A stretch of DNA of 64,000 bases from a virus. Made by a program: the position numbers and the translations under genes. This document shows, piece by piece, positions 33 through 46,287 of this stretch. The first letter of the stretch is position 1. Every line of letters starts with the position of its first letter. The stretch covers positions 132,136-196,135 of IMG/VR virus record IMGVR_UViG_3300042923_000619. One strand, written 5' to 3'. The notes beneath the pieces are model-generated. The model saw only the letters and a program-made list of their open reading frames with translations, was not told the DNA's origin and searched no databases.

Positions 33-2509
33 ATGAAAATTATAAGTGGAAACTGGAGAAAACATAGCTTTGTAGATGAATATATAAAAAAGAATAAAGG
101 GAAATATCTTGTTATTGAAACAAGTGAAAATAGTTATCCTTTTGAGCAAGATGATTTATTATTAGCTGAAACAGAAAAAGAATGTTTGATAACCGATATA
201 ACAAAATGGGATTCAGAATTAGAAAATGATAGGATATTCATTCTTTTTACAAATGAAAATGAAGAAAATTTTAAATATTATAAAGAGAATTTATCGTTCT
301 TAAAAAGAGAAGTTATAATTGTATTAAATACTATATCTGGCACTAGAGTTTATCCATATATATTACAAGTATAAAGGAGGTGATTACTAATGAATTTCAA
401 TGAACGTTTAAATATATGGATAAAAGAAAATAGTATTAAACAAAGTGATATTGCTACGATTGCACAGGTAAATAAAAGTTATGTAAGTTGTGTTGTAAGT
501 AAGGGGAAACCACCAAGTGATAAGTTTATTGATGCCTTAGTAAAAATGAGTGGACATAGTGAATATTGGTGGAATAATGGTAAGGATGAAGATGATAATT
601 TAAATGCTTTTAATGAATTATTAAATACTCTTATAGCAAGTGGAAGTATAAGAGCAGATGGATCATATGATAAAGATATAGAATTAATTATTAAAACAAT
701 GGTTGATAGAGAAATAAAATTAAAAATAGAGAAAGTAAAATAGGAAATATAACAGAATGAAAGGAGATATTAATATGAAAAAATATAGTTTTGAAAAAAT
801 TAAAGAAGAAATAATTAATATATTAGAAAACAATTATTTAAGTACATTGGGAAACAAAAAGAATTTCTTAATAGATGATGATGGTGAAGAAATTGATTTC
901 CAAAATGAGAAATATTATGTATTATGTGATAAAGGATTTAAACTTACACTAATTGAAGGGGATATAATATTAGGTGTATCAAATAATGAAAATGTTACTG
1001 ATAAGTGGATAAGTCAATTATATCTAGCGAAGAAAGCTCAAGAAAAAATACAAAGATTAATTGATATGCAATGTATTTATGATAGTTTGTCCAAGTAAAA
1101 AAAAGTAATTTTACAAAGTTGGGAAGTGTACTAAATGAAACTTAAAGACGTATTACCTTATGAATTTATGGGTAGTGAATATGAAAAAGATAAAGCAAGA
1201 ACATATGCTGAAATTGAAGTCGTCAAACAATATGATTCAAGAGATGTTATTTGGGCAGGAAAACATAAAAACGTAACCTATTGGTTTGAATTAGAAAATG
1301 GTTATGCAGTAGGAATGAATGAGAGTCCTATTAGAGGATTAAGTTTTCCTATACTGAAAATAAAAAGTAAAACTATAAAAATCTGATTTTATTGAAAATA
1401 ATTATCAATTGGAGAGAGGAAATTAATGAATATGAAAATAGATTGGGAAAAGTTTTTTGATAAGAAGCTTATTATACAATTCAATAATAAATATGAATAT
1501 AAATTATTTAGAGATAAACTTAATTTAGAATTTAAAATTAATAAAAATGTATTAAATGATTTAGTAATAAAAACAACACCTAATTTAGTATATGGAGTTA
1601 TTTATGAAACTTTTGGAGGTATTAAAGAATATAGACTTATTGATACTAATATGTGCGATATAGAAAATATCTATAAGAAGTATGTTCACTCTATGGCTGA
1701 ATTTATGTCAAAAGAAGAAATCGCCAACATTAAAGAAAAGGAAGAAATAATAAAAAAAGATATTATGAATAAAGAAGCTGGAGGATGGAGTAGTGGCAAC
1801 GCAATTTGTAACAGCTTGGATAACTATAAAGAAAAAATGGAAAAAGATATAGAAGAATATAAAATGAGAAAAGCTTCATATGAATGTTATTACGGGAATG
1901 GAACTTGGATACACAGTCGTTATTATAAAGAATATTATCCTGATTAATCCTAGATACTATATTAACTTTAATTAAAATCTTAGTTTTATGATAGTTATTA
2001 TCAATTAGAAAGAGGGGAAATATAATATGAAAAGTAAAGTGAGAATTGGAGATACAATTAATTTATTAACTATCAAAGAATGTAAAATAATTAGAAGTAA
2101 TGATAGAAGCGAATCTGATATTATAGATATATTTCTATATAACAACAATGTCAATGTGATTGCAAAGAATGAGAAAGATATAATTATATGTTGTTATGAT
2201 GGTGAATCTTATCCAAATGATAATTTTTATATAATGAAATTTATACATGGGACATTTACAATTAAAAAACATTGTGAGAATAATCAAAAAGGTGCAATAT
2301 ATTATAATGAAGATTATTATGGTTATGTTGATGAAGATGACGAATTTGTATATGTTGCACATTATAGTATTTATGAAAGTGGAATAAATTCTATGTGTAA
2401 AATAAATAAGGATAAATATTATAAGAACGCTGTGAGCATTAATGATTTTAATTATGCTGAAGATTGTTATAAAAAAGAATGGGGATTAGTAGGGAAAGAA
2501 TTAGCTTAA
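33..2509 (+). other. Cluster of small hypothetical phage ORFs (33-374, 757-1098, 1135-1386, 1426-1947, 2027-2509)
   Basis: ORF track; each has a purine-rich RBS; no recognisable family motifs. Confidence 0.75.
390..743 (+). CDS. XRE/Cro-family helix-turn-helix transcriptional regulator
   Basis: N-terminal pattern ERL..WIKENSIKQSDIATIAQVNKSYVSCVV..GKPPS typical of HTH_3. Confidence 0.75.
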   Translation: MNFNERLNIWIKENSIKQSDIATIAQVNKSYVSCVVSKGKPPSDKFIDALVKMSGHSEYWWNNGKDEDDNLNAFNELLNTLIASGSIRADGSYDKDIELIIKTMVDREIKLKIEKVK

Positions 2510-2658
2510 AATGTTACTATTAAATAAATTAAAATAAAATATTTGATTAATTGAATATTACATATTCTATATTTAGACAAATTTATTAGCATATTTTATA
2601 TAAATATTGAGAATTATATAAAATATGCTAAATTCTAGAAAAATATTAAGAAAAAGTA

Positions 2659-2687
2659 TTGTAAACTTTTTCAAGAAGTAGTATATT
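2659..2687 (+). promoter_or_regulatory. sigmaA-like promoter pointing into the 3' end of the minus-strand XRE repressor (possible antisense)
   Basis: TTGTAA-17bp-TATATT; no + strand ORF follows before 3443. Confidence 0.35.
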
Positions 2688-2713
2688 ATAAATATAGATT
2701 ATATTTAATTAAA

Positions 2714-2992
2714 TTAAATATAATAATTTAAATGTGTCTCATCTTCTTTTTCATCACATTTATTATTCAAAGAACAATTTTCACAATTAAATTTCATAAT
2801 TTTATTAGGACAAACCCCTAGTGCTAAGGCTATGGCTGAAATAAGAGATAGTTTTGGAGATTTTTTACGTGTAATAGTCGGTTGTTCTAACATAGCTATA
2901 TAAGCTTGGCTTACACCAACTCTATATGCTAATTCTTCTTGACTCATATGACATTCATGTCGATAATATTTTATGGATAATTCATATAACAT
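2714..2992 (-). CDS. XRE-family repressor with C-terminal Cys cluster
   Basis: IKYYRHECHMSQEELAYRVGVSQAYIAMLE is a classic HTH_3; C-terminus CPNKIMKFNCENCSLNNKC; likely start is the ATG at 2992 behind an AGGAG RBS (ORF track opens at 3013); the only convincing minus-strand gene in the window. Confidence 0.85.
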   Translation of the reverse strand: MLYELSIKYYRHECHMSQEELAYRVGVSQAYIAMLEQPTITRKKSPKLSLISAIALALGVCPNKIMKFNCENCSLNNKCDEKEDETHLNYYI

Positions 2993-3348
2993 TTTATACA
3001 CTCCTTTCGACAAGTAGAAATGTTTTTATCATTATAACATGGAATATTATGTCGAAACAAGATGAAAATTAATCCAATAATAAAATATTAGTAAAATATT
3101 ATTACCACCAGTAATAGTATTAAAAATATGATGTGATATAATAGATTTATAGGAGTTGTTAAATTATTAACAATTTAATTTTAATAAACAAATGAATATA
3201 ATAAGCAAAACTAAAGCCGATAAAAATATCATAATAACTGATAAAATTTCTTTACAGAATATTTGTTTGGTGTTAAAATTATATCTATAATAAGAACACA
3301 CATTCGATAAAACTATGGTAATAAAAATAAATATTCCTAAAATACATA

Positions 3349-3897: not shown

Positions 3898-5316
3898 ATG
3901 ACACAAGAAGAAGTTCTTATATATAGTCAAGAAAATTTAAATAAAGAATTAAAAAAAGTTATAACAAAATATTTTAAAAATAAAGAATTAATAAAATCTA
4001 TAAATTTTGAATTAGCAGAAAAAAATATGAATTCAAATATAACATCAGCATTATTTTTAGATGGAACATTAGAGCCAAAAGATTTATCTAAAGAAGAAAA
4101 AATGGCAATAACAAAAGTTTGTTATGATGTTTTAAAATTAGAAAAATTAAATTATAGAAAATATTATGAAGCAGAAGAAAGAGGAGATTACAACAGTTAT
4201 AAAAATATAGAAAAACAAATAAAAGAAATAGAACTTCATAAAATTCAAAAAATAGATGAATATAATTATATAGGTAGAATTAGCTATGAACAAATATATC
4301 TATATATGAAAAATGTATTATTTAGATATAACAAATTGGCACAAAGAGCATTTAAAACTAAATCATATGGAACAAAGGATTCATCAATAAGAGTTATTGA
4401 CTTAAAACAAAAAAATGTTAATGCTATGTTAGAATTGATATTAAAAGGAAAATTAGAAAGTACACAAATAATAATAAATGTGAGACTTCCAGAAGGAGAT
4501 GAAGATTTTGAACCAAAATATGTATTTGAATCAATAGATGAAGAAAATCTTCCCGACATTGGAACTTTATCAATTTATCCATTATATGATATAGATAGTA
4601 AAGATTTTACAGTAGCAGAAATATTAGATGGATTCCATAGATTAGTTGCTGTTTATCAAGCAATAGCACAATATAAAGCTGAAAATAATGGTACAGTTCT
4701 GGAAGGTGGATTAGATATTAGAATTGTAATGAGAACACTTTCAGAAGCTCAAGAAATCGTCAGACAAATTTTTGAAAGAAGTGACACAAATAAAGAATTC
4801 ATAAAAGGATTTAAACAAGGTGATGATGTTGATTTCTTAAAATTAGTAGAAGATAATTCTAAAATACTAAAAGGTGAAATCGCAATAAACTTCGAAGAAC
4901 ACAAAATGTCTAAAACATTAACATATAAAACAATTTTATTAGATGCATTAAAATTAACAGAAATTCAAGTAGAGAAAAAGGGAAGTATTAGAACTATAGC
5001 AAAAGAATTAGGTTCTACAATTGATGAATTAGTTGAATCATTGAAGTTTAAGTACTTTAATGATAATTTAGAAGATATGGAAGCAGATAGTATGCTATTA
5101 AGTTGTAATATGTTCGTAGGTTATTTAGCTATAGCAAATACTATGAGAACAATGAAAGATTATAATAAAATTGATGAGGTAATAGATAACCTATATACCG
5201 TTCCTAAGTCACAATTAGAAAAATTGAAAATAAATCGTAGCCCAAATTCTTGTAATTATAAAGTTATATACAAATACTTTACAAACTTAGTAATGGAGGT
5301 GTATAAAGTTGCATAA
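3898..5316 (+). CDS. ParB/Sulfiredoxin-fold (DGQHR-like) protein, SPbeta YopQ-like position
   Basis: EILDGFHRLVAV motif matches ParB GxxRxxA / DGQHR; 472 aa; overlaps the next gene. Confidence 0.6.
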   Translation: MTQEEVLIYSQENLNKELKKVITKYFKNKELIKSINFELAEKNMNSNITSALFLDGTLEPKDLSKEEKMAITKVCYDVLKLEKLNYRKYYEAEERGDYNSYKNIEKQIKEIELHKIQKIDEYNYIGRISYEQIYLYMKNVLFRYNKLAQRAFKTKSYGTKDSSIRVIDLKQKNVNAMLELILKGKLESTQIIINVRLPEGDEDFEPKYVFESIDEENLPDIGTLSIYPLYDIDSKDFTVAEILDGFHRLVAVYQAIAQYKAENNGTVLEGGLDIRIVMRTLSEAQEIVRQIFERSDTNKEFIKGFKQGDDVDFLKLVEDNSKILKGEIAINFEEHKMSKTLTYKTILLDALKLTEIQVEKKGSIRTIAKELGSTIDELVESLKFKYFNDNLEDMEADSMLLSCNMFVGYLAIANTMRTMKDYNKIDEVIDNLYTVPKSQLEKLKINRSPNSCNYKVIYKYFTNLVMEVYKVA

Positions 5317-6466
5317 TCAAGATTTGGAATTTATAGGTCAAAAATATTTAAAACCGACTCTAGAAGAAACAGAAGCAAAAAAGCAAGAAATATTGGCTAG
5401 TTATGATAAGTTTCAATTAGATAAAATTACATGGTTAAATAATGTGTATATAGAAGAAACAACTAAAAAACCTTTATGGAGTGTTTATAATAATAATATC
5501 CATGATTATGAAGTTGCAAAAAACAAGGATTTGAAAGATTTTCAACAAGAAGAAGTTGTTTCTATGATGAAAAGTTTTATTTATGTAGCACCTATGACTT
5601 TAGGATCTATTAAAGCTTTTGTTAATAGATATTTTGATTATTGGGTTGAAAAAGGTTATATAACCATTAATCCTATACTTGGTGAGAAATCATTAAAAGG
5701 AATAAAATCAAATAAAAAAATGTTAGAAACAAAAATATACAATATGGATGAATTTTATGATTTACTAAGACAAATGAAAGAAGTCACAAAATCAGCTAAT
5801 ATAAAACCTTTATTATTAGGTAGATATGGCATACAAGGGAAACAATTGATTCATATGAGAAGTTTGAAATATAAAGATATTGATATAGAAAATAAATTTG
5901 TTAATATTTATGATGAAAATAATAAATTTCTAACATTAATTCCAATAGATAACCAGTTTATTGATTTTCTGGCTGAATTAGATGATATTGTTGATGAAGA
6001 CTCTAAGAAGAAATTATATGAATCAGATGTATATGTATTAGAAACAAGAGAAATAGTAAATTATAATACTGTAAATAGTAGAGTTTATAATGCATTTAAA
6101 TATTTGAATAAAAATGGTAAAGAAAATATAGAAGACTGGGAAAAAGTTCCTCGTATATCTTTTAATGATTTACTATTTACAAGACAAATTGAACTTTTAT
6201 TGCAAATAAGAAAGACAAGAAAGATATCTATTCTTGATATAAACAGCATAGTAGATATCTTTGGTAATATAAAAGGAACAGCATTTTCTAAGTATCATAT
6301 ACAAGAAAAATATGAAAGTTTAACAAAAGATAAAGTTCTATTAATTCAAGGAGGATATGCAAAGTTTGAAAATAAGATGGAGATATTAAAAGTTAATATG
6401 ATTGATCCATTAGCGTATGATACAGTCAATGAAATTTGTGAGTCAATAGGATTGAATATAGATTAG
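5309..6466 (+). CDS. Tyrosine-recombinase-fold protein lacking catalytic residues; putative master repressor (MrpR/YopR-like)
   Basis: SAM-like core-binding segment (TLGSIKAFVNRYFDYWVEKGYITINP) and box I-like LLGRYGIQGKQLIHMRSLKYKDID with no catalytic Arg; the HxxR box reads NDLL. Confidence 0.65.
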   Translation: MHNQDLEFIGQKYLKPTLEETEAKKQEILASYDKFQLDKITWLNNVYIEETTKKPLWSVYNNNIHDYEVAKNKDLKDFQQEEVVSMMKSFIYVAPMTLGSIKAFVNRYFDYWVEKGYITINPILGEKSLKGIKSNKKMLETKIYNMDEFYDLLRQMKEVTKSANIKPLLLGRYGIQGKQLIHMRSLKYKDIDIENKFVNIYDENNKFLTLIPIDNQFIDFLAELDDIVDEDSKKKLYESDVYVLETREIVNYNTVNSRVYNAFKYLNKNGKENIEDWEKVPRISFNDLLFTRQIELLLQIRKTRKISILDINSIVDIFGNIKGTAFSKYHIQEKYESLTKDKVLLIQGGYAKFENKMEILKVNMIDPLAYDTVNEICESIGLNID

Positions 6467-6632: not shown

Positions 6633-6719
6633 TAAAACATAGGAACAAAACAAATTAATGTAAAAAAGTAATTTGAAATGAAATTTAATAAGAAATTAAT
6701 TAAATGGATGGTGGCAGTA

Positions 6720-10816: not shown

Positions 10817-10894
10817 TCTTATGCAATTAGTATAAAATGGCTATTTTATTTAGTAGTTGAAAATTATTATCAATTAGACGAAGGAGTAAATATA

Positions 10895-13716: not shown

Positions 13717-13800
13717 TAAATTATATAAAATAATAGAGTATAAAATCTCGTTTTTAATTGAATTTCGGACAAGTAAAATAAATAATGAAGGAGTAAAATT

Positions 13801-17942: not shown

Positions 17943-17968
17943 GGCTATAACTTGGTTGTAGCCTTTTA
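17943..17968 (+). terminator. Intrinsic terminator
   Basis: GGCTATAAC-TTG-GTTGTAGCC followed by TTTT. Confidence 0.65.
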
Positions 17969-18985
17969 ATTTTATGTAAAAACCCTTTAAAATTTGTCTT
18001 TTATCTTGATATTGATTTTCAATTGGTAAACTATAAATATTTAAATAAATTAATAGAAATACTATTGCATTGATTGGTAGATTGTGCTAATATTAGTTTA
18101 GACAAACAAATTAATAATAAAAAGGAGAGAATAAAAATGAAAACAACCAAAAGAATAAGAATAATAGCAAGTAGTCCAGCAGATTCAGGACAAGAAGGAA
18201 TTGAAGAATACATAGGAGAAGAACTTGAAGTAGTAGCATGGTGGAAAAGTAAAACTAATTCATTAGAAGATGGCGAAATACAAGTCATATTAAGAAGTGA
18301 TAAAGATTTAAATTTAAATGGTCAATTAAGTATATTAAATGAAGATGAATATGAGTTTATATAGTAACTTAGGGAATTGTAACAGATTCCCCTACCGTTC
18401 TATAAAAAAGTAAAAGGTGGTAGTTAAAATGAATGATAATTGTGATTGGGTTAAAGAAAAATATGATGGGATATTAGAAATTTATCCAAGAAAATGTTTA
18501 AATACTTTTTTGTTAGATGCTAAATTATTAGAGTTGCAAAAAGATTATAAGTTAGTACAAGTATTTCCTGATTGGATTAGAGCTTTTAAAAAGGAGTAAA
18601 TTATGGACAAGGTATGTATAAATTGCAAGTGGTGGTATAAAGCCACTTGTAATTGTAAAGAGTTAAACATAACAGCTACAACAAAAGATGATGGAGTTAA
18701 ATATGTTGAAGATGGATTGCTTTCAACCAATATTGAAGAAAGTGGATTGACTAAAGATATTATTAAAATAATAATTGTAGAACTCAAAGAACAGGATTAC
18801 ATAAAGAAAACTAAAAATATAAATAACTTTAATGAAGAAAATATAGAAAAAGAATTAATTGAAGTTATAGATGATAAATTAAGTGAAGGTATTATGAATT
18901 ACTTTGATGGTGAATGTGATGAAATTAAAATAAATAATCCTAGTGAGCTTAGTTGTTGTTACTGGGAATAAATTAAAAGAAAGGA

Positions 18986-19772: not shown

Positions 19773-19825
19773 TAAATAAATTAAAACAAATATGCTTTTA
19801 AAAGTGATATTTTAAATGGTAATAT

Positions 19826-20770: not shown

Positions 20771-23663
20771 GTGAAAATAATGGATAATGTAATGAAAGCA
20801 ATTATTGAGAGAAGAACAGGTCATGCAGATATATGGGAATGTACTTTGGATGAATTTATTGAGAAAGCCTTTTCAGAAGTAATTAAACAACAAAAGGAAA
20901 ATGATTTAACACATAAAATTGTTAAACTTGCGACTTCCTTCCTCAGAATTAAGTTTGAACAAAAAGAGTTAAAAGGCACAATAGAATATGAAGTTGCAAA
21001 GGCAATAGAAGAGTCAATGATGTATTATACAAATGTGTTAGGTGAAGATGATTAATTATTAGAAAGGAAGGTGAAATTTTTATGTTAACACAAGAACAAT
21101 TTAATAAAATAGAATCAGAGCATGGTTGTGGATATTGGAATTTATGTTGGGAACATGCATGTCCTTGTGCAATAACTACAGAAAATAAAGGATTAACTGA
21201 ATCTATCTACAATAGTTTTATTGAAGAAAATAAAAGAATAGCAGAAGAATATGATGCCTTTGATTATGATGAAATGGTACATTATGAAAGATGTAGAGAA
21301 TGTGGAAATTTACAAGAAGAAAATGATTTGATAAATGGATTATGTTACTCTTGTTATGATGATTTAAGAGAAGAAATGGAAGAAGAATATGATTAATTTA
21401 AAAACAATAGGAGGATAATTATGAGTAGAGGAATTAATTGGTTTAAAGATATTAAAATAGAAGAAGAAGTTATAGACTTTGGGCTAGGAAAGGAAATTAA
21501 TTATAGTATAGAATATTTAGATGGAAATAGTACGTCTTTTAGTGAAGGTAATATAGCTAAATATCAAGATGCTTTTAGAAAATATGGAAATGTAACGATT
21601 CCTTATATAGAATATGAATATTATTCAAAACCAACACATGTTATAGAAAGATTTATTGAACCCAAAGTATTATCAGAAGTTTGTAGTAAAATCTTATCTG
21701 ATTGTATATTAGATAAATATGACATAAAAAGCAGAATAGAATGGTTTAAAGAAATGTCCGATAAAGGATATTATTTTAGCTTTGATAATTGGTAAAATAT
21801 TGCTTTAAAAGACGTGTTTTATTGGAAATAATTATCAATTAGAATAAGGAGGAAATGATATGACTGAATTAGATATAGAAAAATTAAAACAAGAAATACA
21901 AGAACTAGTAAAAGATTGGTGTAAAAAATACGATAGAACTTATGAAGAAGCATTAGATATGGTAAGTACAATGTATATTCCAAGGAAAAATAAATAAATT
22001 AACACAAATATAGACAAGTAATGAGAAAAGTTGTAAGATATGATTAAGGAGGTAAAATTTATGAAAGAGTTATGCGATATGACATTACAGGAAAGACGAG
22101 AATATATTGAAAAGAAAGCATTAAGTATTACATATGGAAAAGTAAATGATAAATTAAAACAAGTATTAAAGGAGTTGAAAGGTTATGAAAGTAAAATGTA
22201 TTAATAATAAAAATAATTCATTATGTATATCTGTTGGGAAAGAATATCCAGTTATCGAGGAAAGAGAAGATTTATATTTTATTTTCAATGATTATAATAT
22301 AAATGGAGTGTTTAGAAAAGAACTATTTGAAAGAGTGGATAATGATGAGAAATGATATCCAACTTATAATAAATAGGAGGTAAAATTACTATGAGATGTA
22401 AAAAATGTAATCATACTATAAAAAACGGAGAGAATTATATAATATTAAAAGATGGAGACATATTATGTGAAGATTGTTTCCTTGAATATTCATTAGAACA
22501 ATTTGATGCAATAATAAAACAAAATTCAGAAACTTGTAAATAAGTTATAATTATATTGTTAATTAGAGGTGATTATTTGTATATAGATGATAAAAATAAA
22601 TCTGATATTGAACAATTAGAAAAGAAGAAAATAGATTTAACAAATAAATTAATCAAATCCATTGAAGAACAAGATAAATTATTTCATAAAGACAAAACAG
22701 TAATGAAAGATATTAATAAATGTATTAAAAGGTATGGGAATCCAAGAACTATAGAATCGGAATTAAAGAACCTAGATAGAATTTTATATGATTTAAAAAA
22801 GATAGAAAGGAAGTAATAATATGTTAAAAAGAATTATTCATCAATTTAAAATAGGATTTATAAAAACTGTAGTATTGTTTATACTTGCTTTATTGTTTTC
22901 AGTATCAATGTATTATTTAGCGTTATTCAGTGTAAAATTATACATAGTTGCAATAGTAGTAATTATTCTAATTTGTTGTTATTTTAATGGTGAAAGTTTA
23001 TAAATTACTGATTTTAAGTGAAAGTTATGCTTGAAAAACGTAGCTAGAGTGAGTATAGGGGAGAATGAGGGAGTTTAAACACAGAAAAAATAAATTAATA
23101 TAAGAAAGGTGATTAAAAGTGATAGATAAAAATATAAATTATAAGGATTTAGCTGACTATGTAGAGTTGGCAATTGAAGAATACGAATTTCATAATAATA
23201 AACAAATTGATAATCGTAGTTTTTATGATTTAACTGATTGGTTATATCACTTTCATTATTGTGATGCAAATAGTAGAGATATTAAAGAAAGAAGGGCGAA
23301 AAAATGATAAAGAAGCTAATATTAAAATACAAGTTATACAGGAAGGGCTACAAATGGTTTAAAGTTGATAAAGACATAATTAATAAGTACAGATATACAA
23401 CTAAAAAGAATAGAGATTTAGATGACTATATAATTCATTTAAAACTACTTAGGTCAGTTTATTCTGGACATATAGACTTTATAAGAGATGATGATATGAT
23501 GGTTATTGCATATGGATACTTAAAAATAATCGTGGATTTAGAAAAAAACAAAATTATAGAAATACATAATAGTGTAACAGAAAATAATAATGGTCATATA
23601 GATTTTAAAACAAAAGATGCTATTACCAAAATATATGAAAGTGTATATGGAGGTGAAATTTAA
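20771..23663 (+). other. Small hypothetical ORFs (20771-21055, 21082-21396, 21421-21795, 22556-22816, 22821-23003 membrane, 23119-23307, 23304-23663)
   Basis: ORF track with RBS. Confidence 0.65.
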
Positions 23664-26420: not shown

Positions 26421-26758
26421 AAGTAGATAAAAAGTTAATTTTAACAAGAGTTAAATAAATTAATAAAAAAAATAAAATTGAAAGAAGGAATTGAAAATGA
26501 AAAACAACAAAATATTAAAATGTCCACTTGGAGGAGATGAAACAAATAACTGCGAGAGTTGTAGCTATTCAGGAGAATATAGTTTCTTTGGTGGTCAATG
26601 TATAGTAAGAGAAAAGGCTGAATATTTGAACGAGAAGATAAAAGAACACAATGAAGGGAAATGCAATTGTGATTTAAGATATGAAGGAAAAGGATTCTGT
26701 CTAGCTGGAGAATACTTAGAAGGTTGTAGAACTTTAAATGATGTATTGGAGGATATAG

Positions 26759-27654: not shown

Positions 27655-27727
27655 GTATAATATTACTATAAAAGGTTGATTTTATAAGAACATAATAAAT
27701 TAAGATAAATAGAAAGATGGTGATATA

Positions 27728-28336: not shown

Positions 28337-29125
28337 TATAAATATTCTTTTAAAATATGGATTTGAAAGGAAGATTAATAAATTAATCCAAAAGAGGTGA
28401 GAAAATGTTTAAAAGATTAAAGAAAATAATATTATTACATAAGCAAGAGCGTATCTTAAATGATATTAAAGATTGTAATGAGTTCAATCTAGCAAGGATT
28501 AAATGTTATCATACTGATGATTTTACAGAGTTTAATAAAAAATATCCTGAAGACTCATGTGCTTTAGCAAGATGTTGTCCAAATGAAGAATATTTGAAGA
28601 AAATGAAAATAGATGATGAAATAATTAGAATCAATAAGTTGCTATATGAAGATACAGTTAGGATGTATGAAGAATATGAAAAAAGAAAAAGCAAAGAAGA
28701 TTTAGTAAAAAGAGTAAAATTTATTGAAGACGAATTAAAAGATATTAAGAAAAGAATACATTAAATATGTTATTTTATGGTAAATATAAGGAGGAATTAA
28801 AAATGGAATTAACTATTGAACAAAAACTTGACTTGATTAATTCTATGGAGATTTGGGACAGATTTCATGATGGAACTGAATGGGAATTTATTTCAGTCGA
28901 AGACAACAAAATAAATAGAGATATTTTGCACCAAATAGGTGTTACAAATGACTTTATAGAAAATAACGGATTGGTGCAATTTGATCAGATTGATATAAAA
29001 GACATTGGTTTTCAATATGCAAATCACTACAGCCCTAATGATGGTGGATTTTGGAATTACTAAGATGTAACAAAGTATATAAAATAAATGTTTCATTGGA
29101 ACTTTAGAAAGGAGAATAAATTAAT

Positions 29126-30800: not shown

Positions 30801-32551
30801 GACTATAAAAACTATATTTGATTGGAATTTTTAGGAGGTGTATTATGAAATATTTTAAACTAACAAGTGAGATGACTTATGAAGAAAATTTATATAAAGA
30901 AGGTCAAGAATTTAGAATAGTGGATAATGAAGTAATTGATGATAATGGTGAATGGTTATTTGATAGTGATAGTTTAATAGCTTCACAATATGGGATTACA
31001 ATAGAAAAATAGGAGGAATTAAGATGGATAGAGAAGAAATAATTAATAGAATAATGGCAATAGGCAAAAATGAAGGTTTAGGGATACAATTTTGTGGAGA
31101 TGAAGTATCTATAGATTTTAGTTTAAATAGTTATCAACCAATGTTTAAATTTGATATTCAGATTTGTTATAGTAGTATTAAATCAAGACAATGTTTTTAT
31201 TTAAACGTACCAGCTTATAACTTATATGAAAAAGAATTAGAAGAGTATATTAAAGACATAAATAAAGCAAATACAATGATTTTTCATTTAAACTGTTTGA
31301 TTAAAGATTTATTATAAAATCTATCTTTCAATTGAAGTGAGGTGAAATGAATGTTAGAGTGCATATTTTATGGTGCTAATAATAAAAAGTTTAAGAAGAT
31401 GAAAGACGGAGATTATTTTGTATGGAATACAGTAGATACTATTTGTAATTTGTCAAAAGAAAATTTTCTAAAAAGATTTAAAAGTCTTTCAGTGGAAGAT
31501 TATGATAGTTTTAAAGTTGAGATAAAAAGAGTCAAATAGTAGAATGGTTAAAACAATAATTTTAACATGAAAGAGAGTGATAAATATGAATTATAATATG
31601 AATATAGAAGAGTTAATTGATGGATTTCTAAAAGAAGACATAGTTCTTTATTGTCCAACTAAAGAGTCTTTTGAAAAAGCTACAAATGAATTGAAATCTA
31701 AAAATATACAAATAGCAGATATATGTTTAAAATACAATTGGGACAAATATAAAGATAATACATGTATGATTTATATGTCAAACGATAAGGATTATTTTAT
31801 TGAGGACGTTAGAATGTTTAAATCTGAAGCAACATTAAATTTTGATAAGTATATTAGTGGTGTAAATATTTCTGAGGATAATATAACCCAATTAAAACCT
31901 TTAATAGATAAAGTATTTGAAAAGGTAGATAACCTAACTGGTGGTAAAATGTTTTCTAGTCCATTTAATAAAGATGAAGACATTATAGAACTAGAATCTT
32001 TGCACAATCAAATAGAAAAGCTATTGTCGAAGAATGTATAAAAGAGCCATTTTATGGTAATATTAGGGTTTAAGAATGGCATGAATAGGGACTTTAGGAG
32101 GTGAGTTTTGATGAAAATGTATGAAAAAGTTTTAGAAACACTTAATAAGGAATTTTATGATGATAATTATGATAATTTCTGTAAAGAATGTGGTGTTAAA
32201 TGCAATACTGACGATGATTGTAAAGCAAATTGTTATAATTATACTTTATGTACACTACTTGAACAATTACAAAGAGAAGCTATGAACGTTGATGGTAAAT
32301 TCAATGATTATGATTAATAAACAAAATAAATTATAATACAGTAAATTGAAGAATTTAACTGAAAGGAAGAGTAGAATGAATAAATGGATTAAAATAGCAT
32401 TTTTATCTATAATATCTATGACAATTGCTAAATTGTTTGAAAATTATTTTGTAGTTGTATTTGTATTAGGTTTAATTTATGGAGGCATTTCAACATATGA
32501 AATAGAAGATAAGAGTTTATTTAAATTTAAGTAAACAAATTAATAAAACAA

Positions 32552-33673: not shown

Positions 33674-36600
33674 ATGGATATAAGACAAATATTAAAAAAT
33701 GGTGATATATGCGAACTAGAATATCAAAAAGGAGTAACATTTGGTTTATATATGGATGGTTATTTATACAAAAATCAAGATAATGATGTTATGTGTCAAA
33801 TAGGAGGATTTGAACCAATGGTAATTAGAGTGGTTAGACCATCTTCTATGAGAAATGCATTTGAATTATTTAGATATGCAAATAATTATAATTTCAGCTA
33901 TGAAAAATATGGTAAGTTTAATATTGTATATAGTAAATAAGTTGTTTAAATTGTCATTTTACAGTAAGTAAATAAATTAACAGAAAAGAGATGATTAGTA
34001 ATGTGGTATGAGAATGTTTATTTTCAATGTATATTAATGGCACTATCAACTATTATATATATTTTTGTAAATGCATATGTGACTTTTTGTCCTAGAAAGG
34101 GATATAATAATGGGATATCAAAACCAATATGTATAAAAGGAAATTTAAAAGAAGGTGACTTTATTGATTTGGATGGAACAATCAGAAATATTAAGGAATT
34201 AAATTAATTGTAAAATTATGTTAAAATACTTCTTTTACAAGAATATTAATAAATTAAAATATGAAAGGATAGATAAAAATGGCAAAATTAATAAGAAATC
34301 AAAAGGACATAGAATATGGAGTAAACTCAATAATAGAAAGGTATTTATGGGTAAAGAATAAGATAAGCAAAACATCTGCTTATTCATTAAATGAAACCAA
34401 GGAAAGACTAGAATTAATAATAGAAAGAGATATTTTAGATGAGATTTTAAGACAGTTAGATATTCAAGATTTTGAATTAGACAAAGATAATAATGAATTT
34501 ACGATTAATTAAAATATTACTTTTAAAGTGAAAGGAGAAATAAATATGCAAGAGAAAGAGTATAATAAATTAAACTTCCCTAATGGAATGTATACAACAT
34601 ATAGAGGATTACCATTGTATAGAGATGTAATTATAAAAACAAAAGATAATAACATAATAATTGGAGAACTTAAACATGTGTCTTTATATGAAAATGGAGA
34701 TATCTTATATTTGCAAACTAAAAAAGGAAAAATTGATATAGATATTAATAATATTGATGATATTGATTTGTATATAGAGCAGGAAAATGATTTCAAATTA
34801 GATGATATAGTTGAAGTAATAAATATAGATGGTTTAAATACAGTTTTATATGATGAATATCCAAAAGGATTTAATAAAAATCTAATAGGAATGCAAGGAA
34901 AAATAACAATGATAGATAATGTTACTACTAGAGGTATTACTTATTATTTAGTAGATTTACCTGTTAATAATAATAGAATACAAGGCATGAGATATCTTAC
35001 TGATGGAAGAACAGTATTTTTAGGAGATAATTTAAAATTAGTTAAAAGAGGTGGAAAGAACATGGATAATTCAAGATTTTTTGATTTTTCAAACGTTAAA
35101 CCATTAAACTATAAGGATTTAGATGGGAAAACATTAAAAATGACATTAGTTGATAATAATTAATGTTTATTAGTTGCTGGAGTAGATAAAGAAAATAATA
35201 TAATTTATATGTTACATAGTGAAGTAAAGTAGGTGATGAAAAGTTTATTGTAATTACTAATATATGATATAATTAAAGAATATATAATTAATTGATAAAA
35301 GAAAAATGTTTATATTTAATATTTAAAAGGATGTGGAAAAAGTTGAGTAAATTAATAATAAAAAAACAATCAAATTCAGACAATTTATCAAATATAATAT
35401 GTAATTTTGTTAGTTTAGGAGGAATTATTGAAAAAGTATCTCATAACAATATTAAATATATATTTGAAGGAGTTTATAAGAATTCAAAAATTGTAATTGA
35501 AAAATATAATGATATAGAAATAGTAATAAAAACAGATTTAAACAATGCAGAAAATTTTAGATTATGTGAATTGCTTAAAAAAGGCTATTAATTTATATAA
35601 AATCTTGAAAGGAAATGTGTAATATGAATGACAATGAAGATTTAATAATTTGTTATAATTGTGGGTTTGAATATCCTATTGATTATACAGAATTATATTT
35701 AAAAGATAATATAAGTGAAAGAATTTGTTATGATTGTATTGAGAGTGATAATGATTGGTAAGTGGTAAGTTATTTTTATTAAAAGTAAATTAAGAAAGGA
35801 ATACAAAAATGAATAGAATATTAATTGATTATGGAAGATATGATACAATTTTATGGCTTAGTGATGGTTTTACTATGTTAAAGGGCAACTTAATGGAGGT
35901 AGCAGAAAAGATATATAATATTACTACAACCAAATATGTAAATGAAGAAAATCCTGATAAATATTATATAAAACAGGAATATGAATTATTAATTGATTAT
36001 TTTGGAGGTGGTCAAAAATTAGAAGATGTTTTGATAGAAAAGTACAATTTAAAAATAGAACGATGTAATGTTTATAAAAATCATCAACATTACAATTGCG
36101 ATAAACAATCAACAATTAAGTTGCATGAAGATGCTTTTAAGTTTAATGTTAGTCATGGAGATAAAAATTGGTTTAGAAACATGATAGGAAAAGTTGAATA
36201 ATACAGTAATAAAGTGCATTTGACATAAATTAAATAAAGAAAGGAGTATATTTAAATGAAAGATTCAGAAGAGCCACCAAGAAATAAATTAATAATTATA
36301 GATTTTAATATGATTACACACAAATTTGAATTATCAGTAATTAACAATAAGGAATATGTTATTTTAGCAAAGGATTTATATGTTGTATCATGTGTAGAAT
36401 TATTACATAAATTACATACTGAATATAAGCAAATATTATTTAATGTTGATAGATTTCAATTTGGAGATATTACAGATTTGTTAATTGAGCATAACTTACA
36501 TTTTAATATAGATACAGTATGTAGAGAATTAACACGTCTAATAAAGTCAAAGAAAAATTGCACAGTATTAACTGTATATGTAGAAAGTAGAGAATTGAAT

Positions 36601-38971
36601 TATAATGAGAATTTAGTAAAACACTTATTAAATTAAAACTTTAGATTTAAAGCAATTTAATTAAACATAAAATAAAAGGGAGGATAGAATATGGAAGACA
36701 ATAAACAAATAGTTATGAAATTAAATACAGAAGTAAATATAAATGATATTAGTATACAAGAATATGTTCAACAAATATTAGGAAGATTAAGCGATAAATC
36801 CACCTATTTAGGAGAGTGTGAAAGCCCAATACTACAATTAAGAACTATAGGAATTGAAGATATACCAAAATTAAAATTATTAAAAAAAGATAAATATTAT
36901 CAAATAGAATCACCATATAAAATTAATAATACTGTAGTTAATACTTTTGGTACTATTTTTAAAGTAATAAATGAATATAATGATAACAATGAATTTATGG
37001 AGATACAATTTGTAGGTGAGATTGATAAATCTTTAATAGAGTTTACTATAATAAACCATCAACCTATAATTTGGAATTAAGAAGGAGTTATGTATAATGA
37101 TAAGAGAGATATATAACAATTTAAAAGATACTACCTTTTTTATGTATTTATCAAATTTGATATTTTTAATTGTTTCCTTAACTATTACATTTCTAATTAT
37201 ATTAATATTTTGTAAAATAGTTGGAAATTCTTTAGTACAAACAATTTGTCAGAATGAGTTTTATTGGTTAGTTGTAGTAGTTATATCATCTTTTATGTCT
37301 GTTGCTATGACATTAATTATGTCAGAACAAATAAAGAAATATTTAAAATAAAAATTTAATTTTAAAAAGAAGTGGGTGGAATAATGGAAACTGTAGAACG
37401 TTTCGGTATTTTAAAAGCATGGTTCACTAATGGAAACGGTAAAAAAATTGAAGTAAAACCTATAAATGAATATTTAGATACTATAAAAATTAAAAATGCA
37501 GATATAGTCAGTAAATCTAATAATGTTGAATGGAATTTAAACGAAGAAAGTAATTATTTAGGGAAAAGAAAATTAAGGTTTGAAGAAAGTATAAAGAATA
37601 TAATTAATAATGGGAAGGAAGATTGAAATGAATTTAGACTTAAACAAATTTAAACCAAAAGATATAAAAATAAGTGATAAATACTCAAGTAATTTATACA
37701 AATTTCTAAAGAAATACAATAAACAAGGTTATAATAAGGTTTATTTTAACCCAATAGATAATTATGATGGGCATATTATAGAACTAGATATGAACTTCCT
37801 ACCATTCTCAAATATTTACATAGGTGAGATGATTGAAGATGATATAATAGGTAATTCATTAGCAAGAATAGTAACTGGTCAGACATTATATAGATTAAGT
37901 TGTAATATAAATGTAAAAGATGAATGGATAGATATTACAGATGAATTTTGGAAAAGATATGAAGAAATAGGTAGATGCTTATTCATAGGGCATAATTCAT
38001 GGTATCAAGATGATAATGATACTAGATTTACATATACAGATGAAGATAATAGAGTTTGTAACTGGTGTGGTAAAGTGGAACATAAAAGAATTGAACCTGT
38101 AATAAAAGAAAAAGTAATTTGGGAATAAATTAAACAAATTAATATAAACAAACTATTGACAAATAAAATTGGAAGATGTAACATAATATTGTAATAAGTA
38201 ATAAATTAATAGAAGAAAGGAAAATGATTAAGATGTATAAAGCAGAACAATTTCAAGCATTAACTAAACAATATGAGGAAAGACAATTACAAAAGACTAA
38301 AAGAATACAAGAAGATATCAAACTAGTAGAAGATGCACTAGAAAATCTATACATAAAGATTCAAAGTTGTATAGATAAAGAAATTAATCTACCTAAATAT
38401 GCTGAGGTAAATAAGATATTAGAAAAGGCAGTTTCAGATGATTTAATTTTAAATCAAGGATTCTTATTAGATATAACAAATGATAAACATACTAGAATTT
38501 ATTATAATAAGAGTGATTTTGATAATAAAAATAGTAGCAACCATAAGTCATTATCAATGAATAAACCACATTTAAGTCAAATTAAACTTCATGAAAATAT
38601 TAATAAAAAAGAAAATAATCTAAAAACACCTCATACTAAAGAAGAAGCAGATGATAATATCATTAAATTATTTAAGAGTCTTTTTGGAGATGACGCAGAA
38701 ATAAAATATTATAGAGGAGGATTTTAACATGAATGCAAAATTACTAATTAAACTAGTAGAAGAATTTTGCAACGAAAGAAAAATAGATATAAATAAATTA
38801 TACCAAAGATTAGCTGAAATATATCAAGATAAAGAATGGGGAGTAAATATTATAATGGAAGCTAATGAGCATGGTTATTGTCAGCTTCCTGAATATTTGG
38901 AATCTAGAGAAATTGTAGATAGATACATAAGTATTTTAAATAAATTAAAAAGAGGTGAATATAATGTCTAG
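33674..38971 (+). other. Hypothetical ORF cluster (33674 to 38729 starts)
   Basis: ORF track; 35292-35591 is a paralog of 42014-42394. Confidence 0.6.
38156..38184 (+). promoter_or_regulatory. sigmaA promoter upstream of the operon containing the amylase
   Basis: TTGACA-17bp-TAACAT; AACAAATTAAT at 38133-38143. Confidence 0.65.
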
Positions 38972-40192: not shown

Positions 40193-43100
40193 ATGAAAAG
40201 AGAGTATAATTTTGAAGAAGTAATGTTAAATATTAAAAAAGGTGAAACTTATGAATCTACTGAGGATATCTACAATTTAGAAACAATTACAAAAGGTGAT
40301 ATAGGTATAATTTTTAATAAAGAAAGTAAATTTCTTGTTTCAGGAGTTGATGACAAACAAAGATTTATAAAAGTAAAACCATCAGTAAGTTTAGCTGAGG
40401 TAATTAGTCAAGATAAAAGATGTAAAATTGAGAATGATATGATTAATCAATTAATAGAAGAAGATGGACAAAACTTTTTATGGTTAACAGAATATCAATA
40501 TTTAAAAGATATAATGTGTGTTATATCAGAAGAATTTAATAAAACTGCATTCAATGAAATATTAAGAAATGCTAAATGGTATTTAGAAGATTAAAGGTTA
40601 TTAAGGTTTAAATATATCATCAATAGAGAGTAAAATGGAAAATTTATGTAGAAATGAAGGAGCGAATATACAATGATTAATGAAAAAGAAAATATTGATT
40701 GTTTGGAACAATTATTATTGAAAAAATTAGAAATTCCAATAGAAAATGCACCATATGCTACAATATATAATAATGAAATAGGATTTTGGTTTGCCAGCTA
40801 TATTAGTTGTAATATTTCTATTGATGGTTCAGATTTAGAATGGATATGTTTAAGTAGGGATAAAGAAAAAGTAGATATATTTAAACACATGATTGAATTA
40901 AAAAAATTCTTTAATTTAGGTAAAATCTTGATTTTACTTAGAATTAAATAAATTATATTCAATAAAGGAGAAGTGGTAAAAATGAAAGTTTATTTAGTTA
41001 AAAGAGGAAAAATAACTCACACAGGATTTAAAGCAAAAGTTATGGGAGATATAGATGTTTATAGTTTATGTAATCAAAGAATGGATTGTAGTGATGTAGT
41101 ATCTATAGGCGAAGATACAGATGTAACTTGTAAAAGATATTTAAAGAAAATGGCTAAAGTAGATGAACATGGAAGAGTAATTTTATAATATGGATGGTGA
41201 ATAATATGAGTAATAAATATAAAGCAAAAGTTGAATACATAGAACAGATAGATGGTTATATTGTATTAGTATTAATAGATAATAAATGGAGTAGATGTGG
41301 TACAGGAAACCATAGTATAGAAGTATGGGATTTTCAAGAGGATGCTGAAGCTTATATAGATGGATGTAGTAATTTAGAATTGTAAAATTAAGGTAAAATA
41401 ATGTTTTTACTTGGTTATTAATAAATTAAGGAGTGGTAATATATGTTTAAAAAATCAGATTTTAAAAATGGCATGATTGTAGAATTTAATAATGGTAAAA
41501 GAAGAATGATTTGGGACGATAAATTAATAGATAATATCGGGTTTATTTGGATGGCTAACATAGATGAAAAAGATTTAAGACATCTAGATAGTATTAAAGG
41601 AGAGTTTATTGATAGAATATATAAAACTTATAATATTGGTTCAATGAATGACTTCTTTAGAGATGATAGTTTGACTGAAATTTGGAATAGATATAGATAA
41701 GTTTGAATGAAATGAATATATTATAAAGAATTAAGGAGTGAATTATTATGAAAGAAATATCAAAGAACGCTAAAATGACACCATTGTTTTTATTATTAGA
41801 TGAAGAAGGGCTGAATAAACTTAATATGATGGCAGAGAATGTTTATAAGCAAGATAGATTAGAATTTCCTAAAGAAAATGAGTTTGTTAGATTTATAGAT
41901 AAAGATAATAATGTAGAATTTGAAGCTAAAATAACAAATGTAAAAGAAGGTAAAACTTCAATAGATAAAACAATAGAAATTGAAAAGTTAAATTAAGAAG
42001 GAGTGAATTAATTATGTTAAATAAATTAACAATTAGAAAGCAATCAGATTTAAGTGATTTAATAAATATTGTACATAATTTTATTAGTATTGGTGGAGTT
42101 ATTGAGAGTGTATCTTATATAAGTGCTGAATATATGTTTGATGGAATGTACAAAGGGGAAAGAGTAATATTTGAAACCTATAATACTGATGAAATAATAA
42201 TGAGTACAGATTTAGATATTGCAGAAACTTTTAAATTATATGAATTACTTCAAGAAAATATTATAGATTACAAGTGGACACTTTTAAAAGGATTTATTAA
42301 ATCAACAATGAATAATAGTAAGGTAAAATTAGAAGACTCATGTCATTATCAAGCTATATTAAATAAAATGTATGAATTGGAGTGTGATAAATAATGAATG
42401 ATATTTTTAAACAACTATTAAATACTGGATTCAAACCAATATATTATAATAATAGTAATTTAGAAGGATATTCACTTGAAAGCAGATTAAATTATAGAAA
42501 AATGTTAAATTTAGAAAGACATGAATCAACTACAGATTTAATAATAGAGTTGTTAGGAAGAGATAAATATTTTTGGTTAAATAATGTTGATTCTTTATAC
42601 ATAGAAATTGATGAAAATTTAAAATGTGCTGAACTATATTGGCAATATGAAAGTAATGGAGAAGCTATAAATATAACAGACAACTTAGAAGGAATTTTAA
42701 AATTATTACCAAAAGAATATGAATATTTAACATTGGATGACTAACAAATAAATTATTTCCTAAAATTGAGTTTTAAGGCTAGGTATATCAATGTATAAAC
42801 AATCAGTTTTAGGAAATAATGTCGAAAATTAGCATAAAATATTAGTTTTATTGCCTTTTAAATAAAATAAAAAGAATGTGTATTGACTTACATAATTAAC
42901 CATGATATTATAAATATAAGTAATAAATAAATTAAAAACAATAAGGAGTTTAATACATATGAATATAAATAATAAAAATTTAGAAACTTTATTAACATCA
43001 TACATAGGAACAAATGTTAAAGCCCAAATAAATGGACGTGGTAATAAAGTAGAATTTTATTGGGATGAGTTATTAACTGATTTGGTTATTAATGAAACTA

Positions 43101-44451: not shown

Positions 44452-44460
44452 TGTTATAAT
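44452..44460 (+). promoter_or_regulatory. Extended -10 promoter preceding a structured leader
   Basis: TGTTATAAT. Confidence 0.55.
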
Positions 44461-44549
44461 ATATCGAATTGTTCGAGAAAATTAATAGATAAAGAATGAC
44501 TTTATCCTTACGAATTCATAGGCAATATGAATGAGTAGGGTGAAGGATA

Positions 44550-45971
44550 ATGAAACCAATATTTGAAGAAGAAAAGAAATTTATAGAAGAAAGAATAGGA
44601 CTTAAATTGCCAAATAACTGCTGGAGAGATGGAAAAACAATATATCTCAATTGCGATAAAGATACAAGAATATTAACTTTTACGATAGAACATAAACAAA
44701 TTAAAATTAAAAAGAATTTTATAGATAAAGTATTAAATACATATGAAAATAAAACTCTAGAACAAGAAATAGAAGAAAATAAAGAAAGATTGGATCAATT
44801 AGAAAGTACAAGCATTAAAAATACTATAGAATGTATGGAAAAATATCCTAACCATAATTGGAGGATAAGCGATTCAAGTGGTAAGGATTCAGCTATTTGT
44901 ATGAAGATATGTCAGAAGGCTATGAAACAGATAGATAATTATGATTATGATATAGATTTTTTCAATACAACTAACGATACTGCTGATACATATAAAACAA
45001 TAAAACAAAATATAAAGAATACTATTATATTCCAATTAAATGGACAAGATATAACTAAAGAAGAAATGAATAAATTATATAATGAATCATACTCAAAATG
45101 GGTACATAATCCTGAAATGGGATGGTATCAATGGTTGAAAGAAGTTAAACATTATTATTTACCATCAATCATGGTTAGAAACTGTTGTTCTACCTATAAA
45201 GAAGGAAAACTAAAAGAAATATTGGACAAGAAAAAAGACTATGTATTATTTTTAGGTATGAGAAAATTTGAAAGTTCTAAAAGAAGTCATTATGATTGGT
45301 ATTTAAATGAGGCAATGGATGAAATGTATGAAGAAACAAAAAAGGACAAGTATAAAATTAATGTGCCTAGAAATTGGGTTAGGTTTTTGCCTATAGTGGA
45401 ATGGAAAGATGAGGATATATGGATGTATATGCTTAGAGAAGGGATAGAATTCAATCCAATGTACAAGAAAGGATTTGGTCGTGTAGGGTGTCTCTTATGT
45501 CCATTCAGTGGTGATTATAATGATTTACTAATAGAATATTATTATCCTTTACAATGGGATAGATGGAGTGGAATAGTTGAAAAGAATTATGATCTATATA
45601 ATGTTGAGACTAGATTAAAATGGACTAAAGAAGAATACATACAAGAAGGAAAATGGAAACAATCTACAAGTAAGATTCAAGAATACATAACTAAAAAAGC
45701 TACACCAGAAAGAATTAAAATAGTAGCAGAACTTTTAGGAGCATCTGAAGAAATTGCAGAAAAGTATTTTAAACAAAAATGTAAATGCGACAAGAAACTA
45801 AATCCAGACGAAGTGGCTATGTTTTTAAAATTATATGGAAGATATGAAGGGGAGGTAGATGAAAGAGTTTATTTATGTAAGGATTGTCTATATAAAGAAT
45901 TAGGATTAACTAAAGATGAATATTCTGAGAAAGTTAGAGAATTTCGTGAACAAGGTTGTAATCTATTTTAA
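44550..45971 (+). CDS. PAPS reductase/DndC-like PP-loop family protein with C-terminal Cys cluster
   Basis: SDSSGKDS, RNCCSTYKEG, FLGMRKFESSKR, PIVEW...DIW.Y, NPMY..GF.RVGCLLCP. Confidence 0.85.
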   Translation: MKPIFEEEKKFIEERIGLKLPNNCWRDGKTIYLNCDKDTRILTFTIEHKQIKIKKNFIDKVLNTYENKTLEQEIEENKERLDQLESTSIKNTIECMEKYPNHNWRISDSSGKDSAICMKICQKAMKQIDNYDYDIDFFNTTNDTADTYKTIKQNIKNTIIFQLNGQDITKEEMNKLYNESYSKWVHNPEMGWYQWLKEVKHYYLPSIMVRNCCSTYKEGKLKEILDKKKDYVLFLGMRKFESSKRSHYDWYLNEAMDEMYEETKKDKYKINVPRNWVRFLPIVEWKDEDIWMYMLREGIEFNPMYKKGFGRVGCLLCPFSGDYNDLLIEYYYPLQWDRWSGIVEKNYDLYNVETRLKWTKEEYIQEGKWKQSTSKIQEYITKKATPERIKIVAELLGASEEIAEKYFKQKCKCDKKLNPDEVAMFLKLYGRYEGEVDERVYLCKDCLYKELGLTKDEYSEKVREFREQGCNLF

Positions 45972-45980
45972 TATATAAAA

Positions 45981-46014
45981 TTCATGCTATAATCTTATTG
46001 GGTGATAGCATGAA
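45981..46014. other. Perfect 10-bp hairpin covering the RBS and ATG of a 50-aa ORF (46010-46162)
   Basis: TTCATGCTAT-N14-ATAGCATGAA. Confidence 0.5.
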
Positions 46015-46287
46015 AAAAGATTATATACATATAAAAGAAGAAAATAGGAAAAGAATTTTAGTAATAAAGTACCAAGATAAAGAAGACAACTATAGATTAG
46101 TCAATAATATTAAAGACTTAATAAAAATTAAAAATGAAGTTGAAAAATGGAAAAGAAAATAAGTTATATCGAAAAATCACTAAATTAAAAAATGAGGCTA
46201 TAGCTTGTCTGTAGCCTGTACATATTACAATAAAAAATGTATTTTATTGGGTGTTAAACAAATTAATAGATATAAAGTAGAAAGGAG

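Follow-up and report, generated by a model that had tools for sequence, protein, structure and literature searches.

The accessory region of a 64,000-nucleotide (nt) stretch of viral DNA (hereafter the window), which forms the last 64 kb of the 196,135-base-pair (bp) phage record IMGVR_UViG_3300042923_000619 in IMG/VR (positions 132,136 to 196,135; ~25% GC), is punctuated by a palindrome, TAAAA-N6-TTTTA, that measures 16 bases and combines strict arms with six free central bases. We found that this element is enriched at this one spacing in the genome and in related phages, and that among relatives of SPbeta its edges coincide with boundaries at which neighbouring genes have been exchanged. 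We favour, with belief and doubt in equal measure, the view that the palindrome serves as a joint, specific to the phage and bound by a protein, at which the exchange of modules is resolved in register. An original prediction made from the window had taken these palindromes for recombination sites of an integron-like cassette array or, alternatively, for binding sites of a recombinase-fold repressor encoded at 5309-6466.

Several comparisons established the enrichment and its specificity. First, the window holds 20 exact copies (17 had been counted originally) compared to 2.47 ± 1.6 (maximum 7) in dinucleotide shuffles, along with 38 one-mismatch copies, 27 of which lie outside open reading frames (ORFs). 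The whole 196-kb genome contains 45 exact sites versus 7 for the reversed control, and the cores (the six central bases) of all 45 are distinct. The enrichment also survives the AT-matched intergenic background against which the prediction had asked for it to be checked: 37 sites lie in the ~29 kb of intergenic DNA, where order-1 and order-3 Markov models of the same DNA yield ~2.2, and this background and the shuffles together rule out chance or AT-richness as the cause. Second, N6 alone is enriched, as intergenic spacings of N3-N5 and N7-N10 give 2-5 sites each. TAAAA-N6-TTTTA is the most frequent 5-N-5 palindrome in this genome and in SPbeta, and its consensus widens to A-TAAAA-N6-TTTTA-T (the 18-bp form). 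Third, the placement near stop codons and ahead of the next gene is as had been described, with 18/20 window sites outside ORFs, mostly 0-30 nt past a stop codon and 3-55 nt ahead of the next start, and with three sites providing the TAA stop of the upstream gene. Likewise, no exact site occurs within 48,070-64,000 (the replication module), and an exact copy at 46231 precedes tnpB, both as predicted. The two copies of a duplicated gene are also preceded by the element (29080 and 63627), but only as one-mismatch sites. This 158-amino-acid (aa) gene occupies 29126-29602 and 63689-64000 (where it runs across the genome end; the terminal repeat of the record is just 127 bp); the copies share ~99% identity, their upstream leaders differ, and their homology sets in precisely at the ATG rather than at the palindrome. 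The 20 exact sites and these two one-mismatch copies are given below in window coordinates, without strand; composite refers to sites followed at a fixed distance by the leader motif described further on, and RBS stands for ribosome-binding site.

1376..1391, exact, core ATCTGA; then a ATTATCAATT-type leader and RBS
1973..1988, exact, core TCTTAG; 26 nt from the preceding stop and 39 nt from the following start
10833..10848, exact, core TGGCTA; 17 nt past a stop, with a hairpin-like repeat ahead
13741..13756, exact, core TCTCGT
17988..18003, exact, core TTTGTC; follows a GGCTA..TAGCC hairpin
19799..19814, exact, core GTGATA; with a ATAAATTAA motif upstream, 12 nt ahead of the next start
21806..21821, exact, core GACGTG
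26428..26443, exact, core AGTTAA; composite, AATAAATTA 10 nt downstream
27669..27684, exact, core GGTTGA; composite, ATAAATTA downstream
29080..29095, one-mismatch copy, TTTCA arm; 30 nt before copy 1 of the duplicated gene
31549..31564, exact, core CAATAA; 10 nt past a stop, 13 nt before the next start
32039..32054, exact, core GAGCCA; its TAA terminates the upstream ORF
32390..32405, exact, core TAGCAT; within a doubtful 62-aa ORF
34222..34237, exact, core TACTTC; composite, AATAAATTA 10 nt downstream
34510..34525, exact, core TATTAC; provides the stop of the upstream gene, with the called start 3 nt further on
37349..37364, exact, core ATTTAA; gives the upstream stop codon
40921..40936, exact, core TCTTGA, extended arms; composite, AATAAATTA 10 nt downstream; -7.3 kcal/mol, the sole strong hairpin
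41394..41409, exact, core TAATGT; composite, AATAAATTA 10 nt downstream
42835..42850, exact, core TATTAG
46231..46246, exact, core AATGTA; 42 nt before tnpB; composite, AACAAATTA 10 nt downstream
48055..48070, exact, core AGTATG; last site ahead of the replication module
63627..63642, one-mismatch copy, TAAAT arm; 46 nt before copy 2 of the duplicated gene

As judged from its predicted proteins, the phage is SPbeta-like, with a very AT-rich Firmicute as its host: it carries both gene sets by which we assessed membership, the YorI-J-K-L replication genes and the YopQ-YopR pair, its 1281-aa protein aligns with SPbeta YorL over the full length (42.5% identity), and DnaB-like and RecJ-like genes lie upstream of this YorL homolog. 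Megablast against phages retrieved no close relative, a single-protein scan of genomes found none, and three protein scans of viral contigs returned matches at 45-60% identity only; core sharing with Clostridium phage c-st and with G001 was near chance and hence uninformative. The phage confinement, arm constraint, core order and edge boundaries reported in the following come from relatives, not from this lineage.

The palindrome is common to the SPbeta-like group as a whole. SPbeta (35% GC) has 34 sites compared to 2 for the control, with 0-3 at each other spacing from N2 to N11, and c-st has 31 versus 7. In 17 SPbeta-like prophages (of Metabacillus, Paenibacillus, Sarcina, Terribacillus and others) we counted 52 sites at N6 and 5-8 at other spacings, and the element is present also in Lysinibacillus and Paenibacillus prophages. 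Within host chromosomes it keeps to the prophage: 11/12 copies of the 18-bp form in the 3.4-Mb Terribacillus genome lie inside ~103 kb around the prophage, and 21/29 copies in the Siminovitchia genome lie inside the prophage, showing that the palindrome is a property of the phage rather than the host. Prophage loci that appeared to be palindrome-free had copies elsewhere in the same prophage. One Paenibacillus prophage carries a lineage-specific version in which the half-site is relaxed, TRAAA-N6-TTTYA (60 copies, confined to N6); a second specificity was considered for this variant and discarded, as its arms vary independently. As far as the SPbeta literature could be searched, we found no publication describing the palindrome.

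To compare gene gain and loss with the position of the element, we analysed breakpoints among seven Spbetaviruses (SPbeta, phi3Ts, SPbetaL6, SPbetaL8, BUCT083, Goe13 and SPR), that is, in the SPbeta clade instead of the window's own lineage. These genomes have 30-43 sites each, compared to 0-3 for the control. A single site, 6-bp core included, is found again in as many as seven genomes with its neighbours reassorted: with flank classes denoted by letters, core AGACTG stands between left flank A and right flank a in SPbeta, A and b in Goe13, B and b in phi3Ts, and B and c in SPbetaL6. Over 48 shared cores there are at least 70 extra flank classes on the left and at least 61 on the right, and between different classes the median length of identity past the element edge is just 1 nt on the upstream side and 2.5 nt on the downstream side. 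When one flank is anchored, identity is 0.83-0.96 across the 16 bp and steps down at +16/+17. Among unique pairs, the far flank was altered with the core retained in 120, versus 6 in which the core itself was altered. The cores are fully collinear among the seven genomes (rank correlation 1.000) and none is repeated within any one genome.

In the SPbeta early region, 26/149 unique homology boundaries fall within 8 nt of a site, where 1.8 are expected. All 18 palindrome-bearing intergenic regions contain a homology boundary, compared to 35/85 of the others (p = 1.5e-6), and boundary offsets cluster at -4..0 and +16..+19 relative to the site. Of 54 neighbouring core pairs common to at least two genomes, 45 enclose non-homologous cargo, for example yorT versus a methylase gene between cores TATCTC and GATCAA, and a yoqH-yoqI deletion is bounded by two sites. 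Thus, in the alignment of relatives that the original prediction had called for, gain and loss boundaries coincide with the edges of the element, and its claim of cassette junctions is supported, by genome comparison, as an evolutionary pattern. The integron-like mechanism that came with this claim found no support: neither an integron integrase nor an attC-like structure is present, the cores are neutral (see below), and laboratory hybrids did not cross over at the sites.

Conservation within the element points to recognition of its arms. At orthologous sites in diverged pairs, the arms had 1/100 substitutions compared to 63/740 in the near flanks (p = 0.004), whereas core substitutions (5/60) matched the flank rate (p = 1.0). 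On the basis that the arms are constrained and the core is neutral, we conclude that the arms are read by something and that the core is a neutral spacer; identity of a core between phages reflects recent common descent.

How might such an element operate? We propose that the half-sites (A)TAAAA and TTTTA(T) are recognised by a DNA-binding protein of the phage, symmetric and probably dimeric, which bridges the 6-bp spacer between them without reading it, at copies that follow the stop codon of one accessory gene and precede the RBS of the next. As the element with its locus-specific spacer would be the sole sequence retained between otherwise unrelated neighbour genes, crossovers between co-infecting or resident relatives would resolve there, in register, and accessory modules would be swapped slot by slot. 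The subset of copies that lies 9-10 nt upstream of AAYAAATTA probably acts in gene expression too. Protein binding, a causal role in crossovers and the validity of this scheme for the window's own phage are steps that we infer.

Several points weigh against this proposal. The junction role was seen in the SPbeta clade only, the window's own lineage being without close relatives, and the sole duplication inside the window's phage begins at an ATG rather than at a site. Compaction pins some boundaries to the left arm, in which the stop codon of the preceding gene is often located. SPBRE, a proven promoter/operator of SPbeta, also persists as short conserved islands between changing neighbours, so that island behaviour is not specific to the palindrome. 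No crossover in laboratory phi3Ts x SPbeta hybrids maps resolvably to a site, in what is a low-power test: the hybrid crossovers fall in identical tracts of 1.3-18 kb or, where resolvable, in ordinary homologous DNA without a site. Finally, 16 bases are short for ordinary homologous recombination, and the palindrome-binding protein is one whose existence we infer.

The main rival explanation is a dedicated spacer-addressed recombinase system. According to this explanation, the palindromes would be core sites of a tyrosine recombinase of the type of SPbeta YomM, helped by a RusA resolvase, with inner arms of 5-6 bp, a 6-bp overlap and a requirement for identical cores by which each junction would exchange solely with its counterpart in a second phage. 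The 5-6-5 architecture indeed resembles Xer/dif cores. The original prediction had suggested looking for a tyrosine recombinase elsewhere in the phage, and the search disclosed two that look active by sequence, flanking a RusA gene ~105 kb away from the window:

genome 26709-29429, minus strand, recombinase cluster: recombinase A (301 aa), RusA resolvase (186 aa) and recombinase B (358 aa)

Both recombinases have intact R, HxxR, H/W and Y catalytic residues, and recombinase B is the ortholog of YomM, whose gene is found in nearly all SPbeta-like prophages tested. Directly after the cluster lie two palindromes 6 bp apart, and in three lineages (this phage, with its tandem pair, Siminovitchia and Terribacillus) a palindrome follows the stop codon of the YomM-type gene by 3-14 nt. 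In c-st, too, a RusA homolog adjoins the recombinase. The absence of repeated cores within a genome, the 120 same-core versus 6 changed-core pairs with their sharp identity step at the element edges, and the yoqH-yoqI deletion between two sites all fit this explanation.

Conversely, the core accumulates substitutions at the neutral rate, a tyrosine recombinase would be expected to have longer conserved arms than 5-6 bp, and the lack of repeated cores is statistically not significant. SPbeta YomM (yomM, 40301-41302) and YopP (yopP, 78691-79767; NC_001884), both of them orphan tyrosine-recombinase-like proteins, have a lysine in place of the second catalytic arginine (HLFK and HSFK), while the homologs in this phage, G001 and c-st keep HxxR. 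Both enzymes score below every curated Xer and integron cut-off (77.6 bits for A and 26.7 for B with the best integron-integrase model, cut-off 265). A PDB sequence search with recombinase B and with the MrpR-like protein of the window yielded nothing significant. Presence/absence profiling did not discriminate, as the YomM gene occurs in nearly all tested prophages whatever their palindrome density. Moreover, resolvable laboratory crossovers avoid the sites, and the fixed spacing to the leader motif suggests an expression role. We therefore rate dedicated site-specific recombination as conceivable although doubtful, and its fully developed form, in which the palindromes are spacer-addressed sites of a YomM-type recombinase (with a RusA-type resolvase) and a natural counterpart of heterospecific lox/FRT exchange, as a little more doubtful still.

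The leader motif brings a regulatory role into consideration. AAYAAATTA occurs exactly 9-10 nt downstream of 13 sites in this genome, where 0.9 are expected, and on account of this fixed spacing a subset of the palindromes belongs to a composite expression signal. The motif is probably a phage-specific promoter or leader element: the word AAYAAATTAAT(AG) dominates intergenic DNA genome-wide, with ~126 copies in the direction of transcription versus ~20 reversed (genes point rightward over 1-25 kb, leftward over 25-104 kb and rightward over 104-196 kb), and most AAYAAATTA copies lie 10-35 nt upstream of start codons. Examples in the window are found at 26454-26462, 27696-27703, 34248-34256 and 46257-46265, and SPbeta has an analogue in a AATAAAAATAAAAT(TA) repeat ahead of many ribosome-binding sites. 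Other palindrome copies lie downstream of AAYAAATTA or directly before the RBS.

Could the palindrome then be a purely regulatory site, an operator or promoter-proximal box whose coincidence with boundaries arises from stop-codon abutment and retained control elements? Dyads of the 5-6-5 type are typical of helix-turn-helix dimers (434 operators, CRP sites), and constrained arms around a neutral core suit such a reader. If TAAATT acts as a -10 element, the 9-10-nt spacing would centre the palindrome over the -35 position. SPBRE, a real operator, shows similar islands, and many non-palindrome boundaries also lie at RBS, start or stop codons. On the other hand, junctions are broken in 18/18 palindrome-bearing regions versus 35/85 others, the element is retained with either its upstream or its downstream flank, its position relative to RBS and leader motif varies (it is sometimes downstream of the motif), and copies occur inside the single YonO-transcribed late operon. 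We consider a purely regulatory site unlikely.

A specific regulatory candidate was the MrpR/YopR homolog encoded in the window, the recombinase-fold repressor of the original prediction. It lies next to a YopQ homolog:

3898..5316, plus strand, YopQ homolog (tblastn to SPbeta YopQ, E 7e-18; also to c-st CST029)
5309..6466, plus strand, YopR/MrpR-like recombinase-fold protein (Pfam MrpR_N_CB, 27.3 bits, cut-off 27)

The 5309..6466 protein matches c-st CST030 (E 4e-9), which in turn matches SPbeta YopR (E 1e-11). Besides this adjacency, the candidate draws on the fact that MrpR binds a dispersed repeat in SPbeta, namely SPBRE, at ten promoters (chromatin affinity purification sequencing, ChAP-seq; PMC10516654). 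We derived SPBRE from these ten bound promoters by exhaustive window comparison and obtained GACAAATA-CAAATAATATGTATA, a sigmaA-promoter-like sequence unrelated to the palindrome. In addition, there are ten ChAP-seq peaks versus 34 palindromes, and a palindrome lies in the 150 bp ahead of only 3/10 MrpR-bound genes. For SPbeta, where MrpR peaks at SPBRE, the repressor alternative is thus contradicted; we rejected the palindrome as the MrpR operator, the 5309..6466 protein is probably not its reader, and we deem it highly improbable that the palindromes are operators of this homolog.

Another possibility is that the palindrome forms a hairpin, in RNA or DNA, and works as a YonO promoter, a processing site or an intrinsic terminator. 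In favour, NC_001884 labels two SPbeta copies stem_loop, and occasional copies have extended arms. Yet 6/8 window sites that we folded reach only 0 to -2.7 kcal/mol (z -1.5 to +0.5), no better than shuffles, and none of the folded sites has a GC stem with a U tract, so that we discarded the RNA hairpin or intrinsic terminator. A YonO promoter is likewise ruled out, since transcription by the YonO RNA polymerase begins at one position only, ahead of yonK (PMC5467207). Of the explanations considered, the hairpin is the one to which we give least credence.

Other repeats and genes were noted near the element. A conserved hairpin, GGCTATARCTTG..TGTAGCC, at 17945-17968 and 46195-46218 lies ~20 nt upstream of two palindromes, and a second repeat, AAGAATGGCTTAAAYACTA..TGTAG, occurs at 10788-10825 and 48008-48045, the latter ~500 nt downstream of tnpB; both repeat types may be terminators or remnants of IS605/TnpB ends or guide RNAs. 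At genome 126020-127500, leftmost in the rightward early region, a layout of palindrome, 8-9 nt, TGTCGAA (like a Spo0A box), ~20 nt and TTAATTTATT occurs three times. An inverted repeat, ACAATATATAGTATA ... TACTATATATT, adjoins three palindromes at genome ~26690, 66880 and 119470. Adjoining the YopQ-YopR pair, 6678-7580 encodes a protein of 300 aa in which a MazF/PemK domain is flanked by long extensions, and c-st carries a MazF-like gene, CST027, in the matching neighbourhood. The ORF at 15003-16055, with matches to NUMOD1, HTH_40 and an I-TevI DNA-binding domain, has the look of a stand-alone, homing-endonuclease-like gene within the accessory set.

SPbeta has been a model phage for 50 years and c-st-type phages carry medically important cargo. 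The palindrome, conserved from Bacillus to Clostridium, marks exchange points of accessory genes, with methylase, defence and toxin-antitoxin genes among them. Should it be read by a protein, a core function of a large phage group would have gone unrecognised, and if that reader is a recombinase, this would be a natural in-register cassette-exchange system. If the addressing holds true, SPbeta-like phages from Bacillus to Clostridium would swap accessory genes slot by slot without flanking homology. Either way, numbered slots provide a coordinate system for comparing or engineering mosaic genomes, and the questions raised are directly testable in Bacillus subtilis.

The palindrome can be set against several known systems. 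The ComK AT-box, AAAA-N5-TTTT, is an A-tract/T-tract dyad of similar shape, but we rejected this identity because N5 is not enriched (5 versus 2.3 expected here, and 1 in SPbeta) while N6 reaches 37 and 34, respectively. Integrons share with the palindrome an array of short sites between promoterless accessory genes in one orientation. Their attC sites are imperfect palindromes of 57-141 bp that are recombined as folded single strands, whereas the present system is without IntI, attI or Pc, and its copies are 16-18 bp long and for the most part barely fold.

Closer in appearance are the pdif sites of dif modules in Acinetobacter plasmids (Mindlin et al. 2019, PMC6449649), many of which flank accessory genes, have a 6-bp centre and delimit modules in varied contexts. 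Site-bounded modules in different contexts are also what we found in the seven Spbetaviruses, where 45/54 pairs differ in cargo. A pdif site spans 28 bp, with two distinct 11-bp arms for XerC and XerD, is read by host Xer and is related to the chromosomal dif. By contrast, the arms of the palindrome are symmetric and conserved over 5-6 bp rather than forming a 28-bp two-arm site, and within host chromosomes the palindrome is largely confined to the prophage.

SPBRE (Kohm et al. 2023, PMC10516654) resembles the palindrome as a dispersed intergenic repeat in the early region of the same phage group that persists as an island. It differs in that its roughly ten copies are near-identical and lie over sigmaA promoters, while the palindrome has 30-45 copies with unique spacers. 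Heterospecific lox/FRT sites are engineered, with fixed arms of 13 bp and a spacer that decides the exchange partners; fixed arms with a partner-selecting spacer are the logic of the recombinase explanation discussed above.

The promoter-early stem-loop (PeSL) cassettes of T4-type phages (Arbiol et al. 2010, PMC2839356; PMC4122927) are likewise short conserved intergenic elements among small non-essential genes that bound indels and replacements between related phages and have been proposed as a substrate of modular shuffling; mini-circles have been shown for PeSLs. The palindrome bounds replacements in the same manner (18/18 versus 35/85 intergenic regions). PeSLs, however, are ~40-50 bp long, consist of a sigma70 promoter and a terminator hairpin and have copies that are alike, while the palindrome is a 16-18-bp AT element with no -35/-10 pair and no GC hairpin, whose copies each have their own spacer, so that exchange would take place in register.

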